From Dehalococcoidia bacterium (GTDB lineage: Bacteria; Chloroflexota; Dehalococcoidia; DSTF01; JACRBR01), in contig JBBDXE010000032.1 in the NCBI GenBank assembly GCA_040902505.1, positions 261,158-325,157 of the forward strand: 64,000 nt of DNA. Direction: 5' to 3'. Shown piece by piece: positions 39,180-41,256 of the stretch (the first letter of the stretch is position 1; every line of letters starts with the position of its first letter). The position numbers and the translations under genes were made by a program. The notes under the pieces were generated by a model. It was not told where the DNA came from. It saw nothing but the letters and a program-made list of their open reading frames with translations, and did no database searches.

Positions 39180-39438
39180 GTGCGCCTTTCCCGTGCGTCC
39201 ATTCTATCGACGTGAGGGTGGGGGATCGCTGGGTGGGGGTGCAGGTGGACGGGGCGTAACACAGTCTTAATCGACGCGGCGACCTCTCCGGCTTCGCGGA
39301 GGGGGTGACGGCGATGAGGCGGTGGTGGGCGAGGCAAGCCTCGCCCCGTATAAGCTCAATTGACGCGACAGGCGATGATAATGCATGTCGTCTCGAGTTG
39401 GGGGCTCCCCCGGCCCACCAGCCTTGCCCCCTAGTCGA

Positions 39439-40227
39439 CTATCTATCAAGACCAAGCCCTTTGTGGACATTCACGGAGAACTCATCCAGAGAAGATGCAG
39501 GAGAACCGACGCTCAGGCAGAGATCCATCTTGCTAGCATTCGCGCCACTCGTGTCGAGTACAGCTATCGTGAGTACCCCCAAACTACTGATTGCCCGAGC
39601 GAGATCCCACGCATGACCGCGTATCTCTTCGTTGTCTTGGTAGTAGATCACGTACACGCCCCGGCGCGGTGGGAAGTGCATCGTGTCGGTTCTGTGAGCA
39701 TCCGTGATGCACCCCAGCGACTTCAATTCGTCGCGCACCTCCTCTGCAAAGGCATCAGCCTCACCACTCCCCATCAAAGAATCAAAGCCAATTCGTAGGC
39801 CTCTGAGTTGCTGTAGGCTGCCGATCACTTCACGCGCGGCTGTTCCTCGCAGTGTGCGGGGTTGAGGGCCGATGTTCGTGATGGCCGCTGCTGTCTGACC
39901 CCCACGCTGACTTTCTGACTTGACGCTGACAGGCGCGTTGAATTGCACGCCCCGCTGCGCCCCGGGGGTCGACGGTGGCGGTGAGTCATGAGGGATGCCT
40001 CGTCGACGCTCTCTCAGCCAGACCGTTCCAAGCGCCATAACAAGTACGACTGCGACTAGGCCGCCTATGATTGTGGCTAGCTCAAGCCCACGTAGCCCGG
40101 CTAACCAAGCCCAATAGCCAATGCCGCCGATAAACCCGACGATCGCAACTGTTGCCACGACGGCGATGCCAGCCACGTACTGCGCCGAAAAGTCGTGCAG
40201 CCATCTTCGCCGTGCGTGAAAGTTCAT
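39439..40227 (-). CDS. membrane-anchored protein of unknown function, paralog A (shared QRGGQTAA-ITN motif)
   Basis: 262 aa with two N-terminal TM helices then a soluble domain. It shares the SESQRGGQTAAAITNIGPQPRT motif and a downstream ~50-aa module with the adjacent gene. Local GC is ~52-55% against a ~70% background. Confidence 0.55.
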   Translation of the reverse strand: MNFHARRRWLHDFSAQYVAGIAVVATVAIVGFIGGIGYWAWLAGLRGLELATIIGGLVAVVLVMALGTVWLRERRRGIPHDSPPPSTPGAQRGVQFNAPVSVKSESQRGGQTAAAITNIGPQPRTLRGTAAREVIGSLQQLRGLRIGFDSLMGSGEADAFAEEVRDELKSLGCITDAHRTDTMHFPPRRGVYVIYYQDNEEIRGHAWDLARAISSLGVLTIAVLDTSGANASKMDLCLSVGSPASSLDEFSVNVHKGLGLDR

Positions 40228-41039
40228 ATGAATCCACCCACTTCGATCCCAATGACGGCCATTCGTTGTTCTGCGGTGCGACGTCGGGCGGAAAAACCCA
40301 TCGCTTGGAGTTCTCGAACAAGAAGATCAGCAACCGACTGTCGTTGAACGTTAGCCCAGATGATCACAGGGCCATTGTCCGGGAAGATCGCGGCGCGTTC
40401 GTGTGCTATAGACCACCCTGCCTCGCGCAGCGTCTGGCTCAGTTCAAGGGCAAACGCCTTTGCCTCTGGATTCCCCAGATACCACGTCACTGTAGCGGGT
40501 GCTGTCGCGCCTGATAGGCGTTCGACGGCGCCCGTTCGATCTACATTGGCGAATGTCCTTCTCTGCGCACCTTGGTTCGTGATCGTGGCAGCAGTCTGTC
40601 CGCCCCGTTGATTGACCGACGTGACCTGAATCGGAGCAGTAGTTTGGATGCTTCCAGCACCCGCGATGTTTACTCCAGCGGACGGCAACGTTGGGGTCGC
40701 CGTCTTGGCAAAGGGAGGATTCGGTACGAGCCTTAAGACACCCTCAAAGAGCACAAAAGCGATTGCGATGGTTAACGGGACTAGAATGGGGTAAGCCTGC
40801 CATGGCACGTTTTGTGCGACCGAGAGTGCAACGACGCAACCTGTACTGATCACAGGTAGTGCTGTCGCGATCAACCATGGCCACAGATACTGGTATGAGA
40901 ACTGGGCATCGCTGCCAAGGCCGATAGCTCCCAGCACCCAGCGGCCGAACTGTCGAAGCCGCTTGCGCATGGCGTGATCCTCCTGATCCTGCGGGGGCTT
41001 GCGGTTGCCTCTCCCCGGACAAAGAGGCACCGGGCGCAA
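40224..41039 (-). CDS. membrane-anchored protein of unknown function, paralog B
   Basis: 271 aa (the start may be M23 at 40973). It has 2-3 TM helices and the VNQRGGQTAATITNQGAQRRT motif, and overlaps paralog A by 4 nt. Confidence 0.55.
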   Translation of the reverse strand: MRPVPLCPGRGNRKPPQDQEDHAMRKRLRQFGRWVLGAIGLGSDAQFSYQYLWPWLIATALPVISTGCVVALSVAQNVPWQAYPILVPLTIAIAFVLFEGVLRLVPNPPFAKTATPTLPSAGVNIAGAGSIQTTAPIQVTSVNQRGGQTAATITNQGAQRRTFANVDRTGAVERLSGATAPATVTWYLGNPEAKAFALELSQTLREAGWSIAHERAAIFPDNGPVIIWANVQRQSVADLLVRELQAMGFSARRRTAEQRMAVIGIEVGGFI

Positions 41040-41126
41040 GCGGCGTAATCCGCTGCGTCCATCGTCGCGGATCGGCTACCTCGCCCTCAAGTCCGCAATC
41101 GCACGCCGCCCCGCGCCGCCCCGAGC

Positions 41127-41160
41127 TAACCCCTGCCCCTTCCCTGAAGGGAAGGGGTTG
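41127..41160. repeat. perfect inverted repeat/hairpin (CCCCTTCCC-TGA-GGGAAGGGG) in a divergent intergenic region
   Basis: AACCCCTGCCCCTTCCCTGAAGGGAAGGGGTTG read directly, between paralog B and the LLM oxidoreductase gene. Confidence 0.4.
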
Positions 41161-41256
41161 TGTGGGTTGGCTGGTGCGAGTTTCGGCGCGGGTGCTCCAG
41201 CATGAGCGCTCCGCTATGATCGCCGCACGTCCGGCGCATCGACGAAGGAGGGACGC

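Follow-up and report, generated by a model that had tools for sequence, protein, structure and literature searches.

Described systems and the locus under study

Effectors of CBASS, Pycsar and Thoeris (Cap5 HNH-SAVED, TIR-SAVED and transmembrane (TM)-sensor proteins) combine a C-terminal regulatory domain with interchangeable HNH, TIR or TM killing modules. In the BASS1-11 and Bab/Agp systems, adjacent gene products have a short N/Q/G-rich motif in common, and membrane-targeting, TIR and STAND-neighbouring proteins are associated with them. BASS motifs are ~25 aa long, rich in Q, N, G, V and I but poor in K, P and L (bioRxiv 10.1101/2020.01.06.895854); Bab and Agp are adjacent, both carry BASS11 and act in abortive infection (bioRxiv 10.1101/2024.11.07.622273). 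The LytR_C domain is a homo- and heterotypic interaction module that occurs in paralogue pairs. LytR_C solo proteins, such as VirR/Rv0431 and Cei/Rv2700, consist of a TM anchor, a linker and a small alpha/beta domain; by way of this domain they self-interact and bind LCP proteins, and they include two paralogues in M. tuberculosis (PMC11832169). PADLOC also holds models of PDC systems, which are candidates predicted from their embedding in known defence systems (bioRxiv 10.1101/2024.01.29.577857).

The locus described here lies in a 64-kb window (the whole stretch of DNA that was analysed) of a Dehalococcoidia MAG. It comprises two tandem genes, orfA and orfB, from a family that invites comparison with all of these systems. 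We tentatively favour, at somewhat less than an even chance, the reading that the pair is a horizontally acquired conflict or abortive-infection-type module in which two-helix (2TM) hairpins are controlled by a conserved motif and a C-terminal domain. An imported defence or cell-suicide role is suggested because the tail of these proteins is elsewhere joined to DNA-cutting or cell-killing heads.

Composition and genomic setting

The interval 39340-41060 has a GC content of 58.6%, compared with 68.7% across the window, and is the lowest-GC 1.7-kb interval of all in sliding windows (mean 0.686, sd 0.027). The preliminary description was right that GC falls here but placed the level too low, at 52-55%; values of 55% are reached only in single 300-nt windows. 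The contrast with the neighbours is far larger at third codon positions than in overall GC. GC3 is 0.60 in orfA and 0.58 in orfB, against 0.96 in the adjoining glnA, 0.97 in the adjoining luciferase-like gene and 0.83-0.97 in essentially every credible gene elsewhere in the window. Composition is also non-uniform by tetranucleotide distance, for which the island is the top outlier (z=+4.85), and nowhere else in the 64 kb does composition deviate as strongly. Its low GC is real and beyond chance fluctuation.

The neighbours of the island are housekeeping genes (nuoHLMN, glnA, AzlC, RimM and Ffh), and no defence or mobility genes were found within ~12 kb of the locus. Neither tRNA genes nor flanking direct repeats, as signatures of integration, were identified at the island edges. 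Given the GC3 and tetranucleotide anomaly amid housekeeping genes, horizontal acquisition, as proposed from the start, is the natural reading.

A search of genome contigs for related loci confirmed none for synteny comparison, and exact look-ups of GlnA and of the luciferase-like protein found no close relative. The 80 metagenome loci that encode a homologue of the luciferase-like protein (<=73% identity) have no other neighbour in common with the window. Both genes were seen on just one further contig, a 2.2-kb Logan assembly from the same run, SRR27977660.

Both of the hairpins previously reported at the island edges exist. At the lower edge, on the reverse strand, is a GC-rich perfect hairpin, GGGCGAGGC-nn-GCCTCGCCC (39327-39346, an exact match). 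About 95 nt separate it from the orfA stop on its upstream side, and the glnA start (39179) follows downstream. It is present in the minimum free energy fold of 39300-39445 (z=-2.06). A consensus terminator scan did not call this hairpin, which is without a U-tract; it is a possible terminator of the gene pair. The CCCCTTCCC/GGGAAGGGG hairpin at the upper edge (41136-41157) is exact, unique in the window and forms the tip of a ~95-nt stem-loop (41100-41200, no strand assigned) in the intergenic region that separates the divergent orfB and luciferase-like genes. The stem-loop has fold z-scores of -4.5 on one strand and -4.9 on the other; none of 200 shuffles equals its stability, and the Logan contig, an independent assembly of this run, stops within it, at 41155. 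An Rfam scan returned nothing above threshold. An integron cassette was considered and rejected: there is no integrase among the neighbours examined, and the hairpin is 5' of the genes.

The gene pair

orfA (WEC75_13235; 39439-40227, reverse strand) is a 262-aa ORF whose product is identical to an NCBI hypothetical protein. orfB (WEC75_13240; 40224-40970, reverse strand) encodes 248 aa, and NCBI annotates the same product. The stop of orfB and the start of orfA overlap by 4 nt (ATGA). Two co-oriented genes with this overlap had been reported, and co-orientation and overlap are as stated then, but the start given for orfB was not: the listed ORF runs to a TTG at 41039 and is over-extended. The real start is the ATG at 40970, which is preceded, 8 nt upstream, by AGGAGG, a ribosome-binding site read from the sequence (40979-40984, reverse strand); the 248-aa NCBI product agrees.

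The two products align by BLASTP with E=2e-11 (41% identity over 81 aa) and, in a second comparison, with 34% identity over 126 aa. At the DNA level, the motif region forms a repeat of 51 nt (D1) with 73% identity. Judged by sequence similarity (E ~1e-11), orfA and orfB are true paralogues, in agreement with the tandem paralogy first proposed, and both of the peptide blocks then quoted are present. The orfA product is laid out as a 2TM hairpin, a Pro-rich linker, the motif, an alpha/beta domain and a low-confidence C-terminal tail. The layout of the orfB product is the same.

An unnamed protein family and its motif

Word-indexed homology searches with each protein recovered only self matches. 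No meaningful match to either was found in Pfam, NCBIfam, PADLOC or PHROGs, and neither matches any PADLOC-DB 2.0 family at E<=10. Weak hits, PspM, TrbH and Glyco_trans_2_3 among them, were set aside, all being far below cut-offs. An exhaustive search with a two-sequence profile retrieved 202 representatives at E<=1e-3 (50% clustering), which provides independent support for family membership. The phyla represented are Chloroflexota, Bacteroidota, Acidobacteriota, Myxococcota, Actinomycetota, Nitrospinota and Omnitrophica. A family HMM was built from 42 diverse members. Over HMM positions ~2-138 it scores orfB at E=2.7e-36 and orfA at E=1.6e-34, values that are not independent because both proteins are among the 42 profile-building sequences. 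An indexed search with the 42-sequence profile gave only 13 matches, all 'hypothetical', as family members are labelled in all sources. The family is without a name, and the models of Pfam, NCBIfam and PADLOC cover neither its C-terminal domain nor its motif. The initial remark that the proteins fall in no recognisable family is therefore correct for the curated libraries, but they are not orphans: the family they belong to has ~200 representatives (50% clustering).

No element of the family is better conserved than a linear, near-invariant, Q/N/G-rich motif of ~24 aa, [VI]xSxNQxGG[QI]TAxx[VI]xN. Its near-invariant residues, S(-3), Q0, G2, G3, T5, A6 and N(+10/+11), occur at frequencies of 0.93-1.0 in 146 instances, and all are retained in both window proteins, which carry SxxQRGGQTAxxITN. 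The orfA copy, SVKSESQRGGQTAAAITNIGPQPRT (39853-39927, reverse strand; DNA repeat D1), is modelled as coil with pLDDT 61-82. In the full-length model of the orfB product, the first half of the motif copy, QVTSVNQRGGQTAATITNQGAQRRT (40554-40628, reverse strand), has pLDDT 41-54 and the last ten residues ~85. Relative to background, the motif is enriched in Q (2.87), N (2.71), G (1.99), I (1.58) and V (1.41), and likewise in T, and is depleted in K (0.27) and L (0.13). P shows no depletion (0.87), owing to a trailing GPQPR; save for this residue, the composition is close to that described for BASS motifs.

Through the motif, HNH, TIR and membrane modules are linked to several C-terminal domains that are unrelated to one another. 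The motif also occurs in exported proteins (a phage lipoprotein and Bacteroidota proteins), and thus the module is not exclusively cytoplasmic. A C-terminal position of the motif was found only in Bacteroidota 'gene 1' proteins, which are small TM or hydrophobic-helix proteins, and in one phage lipoprotein. Motif strings had no match in the searchable literature, and motif peptides are absent from PDB sequences. Genomic hits to a degenerate DNA pattern of the motif, mostly in Bacteroidales and other genomes, were rejected as unrelated: the seven translated loci encode RsmH, in which a ...DMRMNQxGGxTAxxxxN segment matches the pattern by coincidence. Two other interpretations of the motif were discarded. 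A double-glycine leader or RiPP cleavage site would be at odds with the lack of an adjacent C39 peptidase or ABC transporter in the neighbourhoods examined and with a motif unlike LSxxELxxIxGG. The idea of ubiquitin-like conjugation at GG was dropped because the neighbours examined include neither E1 nor E2 nor JAB proteins.

The retention of every near-invariant motif residue also bears on whether the genes are decaying or functionless cargo, i.e., transfer remnants without a current role. We consider this very unlikely. The composition is unshifted toward that of the host, a consensus promoter scan found no promoter-like site for the island, and no functional partner genes are nearby, all as cargo could be expected to look. 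Nevertheless, both ORFs are intact, with start and ribosome-binding signals and a coupled stop and start, both match the family profile over their full length (E ~1e-35), and both proteins fold confidently in AF2.

N-terminal modules

The N-termini of the family are variable and consist of 1-2 TM helices (~50%), a Cap5-like HNH nuclease (~24%) or a ThsB-like TIR. A census of 160 members counted 81 with TM helices, 39 with HNH, 28 that are domain-only and 12 others. The N-termini of HNH members match PADLOC models for the CBASS endonuclease effector, SAVED-HNH, PDC-M68A and SduA, over residues ~5-110 only, and one member, P0151, matches the ThsB TIR at 4.7e-28. By PADLOC models the HNH is specifically Cap5-like, as in CBASS, and the TIR is ThsB-like, as in Thoeris. 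However, the C-terminal domain of the family is not SAVED, CARF or cNMP-binding and has no Pfam or PADLOC match, and no cyclase or other signal-generating gene adjoins the family loci examined. The likeness to CBASS, Pycsar and Thoeris is one of architecture, not of sensor-domain homology, and a nucleotide second-messenger sensor was rejected because no cyclase occurs in any context examined.

Unlike the Cap5 HNH and TIR effectors, the window proteins carry TM helices only. They have no PADLOC or Pfam match to HNH, which is found in relatives only. The PDC-M68A model matches HNH-bearing members at up to 3.7e-33 (60 members scanned), in most of them over the N-terminal HNH part only (residues ~5-110), whereas the window proteins have no match. 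A literature search for PDC-M68 found nothing.

Membrane topology and fold

Two hydrophobic helices were identified in each window protein, as expected from the membrane anchoring first described. The predicted hairpin of the orfA product spans residues 17-70 (40018-40179, reverse strand; Kyte-Doolittle segments 18-36 and 53-71) and is flanked by the charges RRR...RERRRG. That of the orfB product spans residues 26-81 (40728-40895, reverse strand), with AF2 helices at 26-53 and 57-81 (pLDDT 82-87) and Kyte-Doolittle support, and is preceded by an N-terminal helix at residues 2-15. With two TM helices, the positive-inside rule predicts an N-in/C-in topology and a cytoplasmic C-terminal domain.

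The C-terminal alpha/beta domain is ~100 aa in the family, is modelled with high confidence and is only weakly LytR_C-like. In the orfA product it comprises residues 129-240 (39508-39843, reverse strand; AF2 model m9afe88d41544, pLDDT 81.7, pTM 0.76) with the secondary-structure order a-b-a-b-b-a-b-b. In the orfB product it comprises residues 146-244 (40239-40535, reverse strand; AF2 model m0907f5d5cc57, block pLDDT 86-98, mostly >=95). AF2 confidence is low for the linker and for the first half of the motif. In Foldseek, the sole PDB match at E<=0.001 is the C-terminal LytR_C domain of Rv0431 (2m5y, E=1.9e-4, prob 1.0).

This match raises an explanation in which the pair is an envelope-homeostasis module of LytR_C-solo-like anchored proteins, simply acquired by transfer, whose C-terminal domains would make protein-protein contacts in cell-wall or envelope remodelling. 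The order of TM anchor, linker and small alpha/beta domain is that of LytR_C solo proteins, and the self-interaction, LCP binding and paralogy of the latter would fit a tandem pair. In addition, 55 of the 160 census members have a single TM helix, for which the domain is predicted to be outside the cell. We nevertheless regard the envelope explanation as unlikely. No sequence-level relationship to LytR_C was detected: PF13399 matches neither window protein at E<=10 and none of 60 family members at E<=0.01, and the family profile, run against PDB sequences, retrieves neither 2m5y nor 6q10 at E<=10. (The sole matches of that search, to designed helical repeats, are spurious.) Moreover, the two TM helices of the window proteins place the domain, by prediction, in the cytoplasm, in a quarter of the family the domain is joined to a cytoplasmic HNH or TIR module, fusions that set it apart from LytR_C solo proteins, and relatives occur in mobile or defence-like contexts and not in cell-wall operons. 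The NQxGGxTA motif is not known as a feature of LytR_C proteins.

Gene neighbourhoods and pairing

The defence-like contexts of relatives are a qualitative observation, made without a background control. GmrSD and SNF2 occur in the contexts of relatives, and IS1595 adjoins another tandem pair, whose genes likewise overlap by 4 nt. Neighbours of the relatives examined also include a TIR protein, STAND/TPR NTPases and DUF4365, with STAND NTPases at two loci. Matches to R-M, ApeA, GajB-like and PDC proteins were identified among 99 neighbouring ORFs of relatives, and the closest 2TM relatives adjoin DNA methyltransferases, a serine recombinase, and HicAB with IS1595. Searches by tblastn of 50,697 phage records and 72,556 plasmid records, with the orfB domain and with the family consensus as queries, found no match; IMG/VR contains one motif-only lipoprotein.

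Motif-bearing genes are adjacent in 11 of 27 loci (the window pair, L002, L010, L012, L018, L031, L033, L043, L078, L081 and L084). A paired function, as raised in the preliminary description, is suggested by this recurrence but goes no further than that, as the closest relatives are singletons. The more specific proposal of effector and immunity partners found no support, both proteins having the same architecture. A toxin/immunity or toxin-antitoxin pair, with one membrane toxin and one cognate protector, would be in keeping with the tight coupling through a 4-nt overlap on a foreign island and with the accessory-genome contexts of the family. It is nonetheless extremely unlikely that full-length paralogues of this kind divide the roles: most close relatives stand alone, and there is no conserved A-type/B-type division, since paralogues of one locus resemble each other more than those of the other locus compared.

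Adjacent genes with the same motif are also the arrangement of BASS and Bab/Agp, and the window pair has it. This brings in the possibility that the motif is a new amyloid or beta-arch signal, so that a triggered paralogue would template the other and activate its hairpin. Several observations point in this direction. The bias of the motif is near that reported for BASS motifs (bioRxiv 10.1101/2020.01.06.895854); in monomer models it is low-confidence or unstructured, with a Pro-rich linker before it; and 19 proteins have two copies each. The killing modules to which the motif is fused are of TIR, HNH and TM type, and STAND NTPases adjoin it in two loci. Because it is found in cytoplasmic as well as in exported proteins, it does not depend on a compartment-specific partner. 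Some of the adjacent motif-bearing genes encode small TM proteins with the motif at their end, a feature of Bab, and the Bacteroidota relatives, small hydrophobic-helix proteins with a C-terminal motif, extend this likeness. The abortive infection system of Bab and Agp offers the precedent.

We judge templating of this type to be quite unlikely for the window pair, however. In the defining BASS arrangement an NLR/STAND or other sensor carries the motif at its N-terminus and an effector carries it at its C-terminus. This was not found in the 27 loci, in which no motif-bearing STAND protein was identified. There is no Bell or Babybell domain, and the motif of the window proteins is internal and runs directly into the folded domain. 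Both partners have the same architecture, and therefore the pair lacks a sensor/executioner asymmetry. The within-pair motif match is only modestly higher than that between loci (0.55 versus 0.43, permutation p=0.0065), a difference that is confounded by relatedness, and the singleton state of the closest relatives also speaks against templating between neighbours. A more general proposal is that the motif is an unrecognised self-templating assembly motif, of amyloid or beta-arch type, that works on either side of the membrane, couples adjacent gene products and triggers killing by 2TM, Cap5-like HNH or TIR modules, themselves activated by oligomerisation, across many phyla. We hold this to be just as improbable; if the motif were self-templating, the window pair would be a minimal two-component cell-suicide switch, Bab/Agp-like without an NLR.

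A possible conflict module

The conflict-module reading draws together the foreign composition of the island, the paralogy and domain layout of its products, and the accessory and defence-like contexts of their relatives. Under this reading, an acquired insert of 1.8 kb between glnA and the luciferase-like oxidoreductase gene would carry two tandem modular paralogues. The C-terminal domain may hold each protein inactive and sense a trigger, possibly a phage component or an envelope or cell stress. Once triggered, the motif and domain would drive self-association of the paralogues, alone or together, and the clustered membrane hairpins could then permeabilise the membrane, such that the infected cell is killed or arrested. 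Two diverged paralogues may broaden the range of sensing or form a hetero-oligomer.

Our confidence in a conflict function is held down by several points. No member of the family has been characterised, the window proteins are outside PADLOC and PHROGs models, and no match was found among sequenced phages or plasmids. The ~12 kb around the locus is free of defence and mobility genes. In the 55 single-TM members the domain would be extracellular, the motif is also found in exported proteins, and LytR_C, the sole significant structural match, is an envelope-associated interaction domain.

Implications

Under either reading, the locus shows cleanly how a tiny foreign insert can lie among the core genes of a Dehalococcoidia MAG with no accompanying mobility gene. 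Because the motif joins HNH, TIR and membrane modules to unrelated domains and recurs in adjacent genes, it leads to a concrete claim on how effector activation may be wired. If the LytR_C-like reading is true, a poorly understood envelope-interaction domain extends far beyond Actinobacteria. If the conflict reading is true, the pair would be an entry to uncatalogued one- or two-protein immune or cell-suicide modules, with at least 200 clusters at 50% identity.

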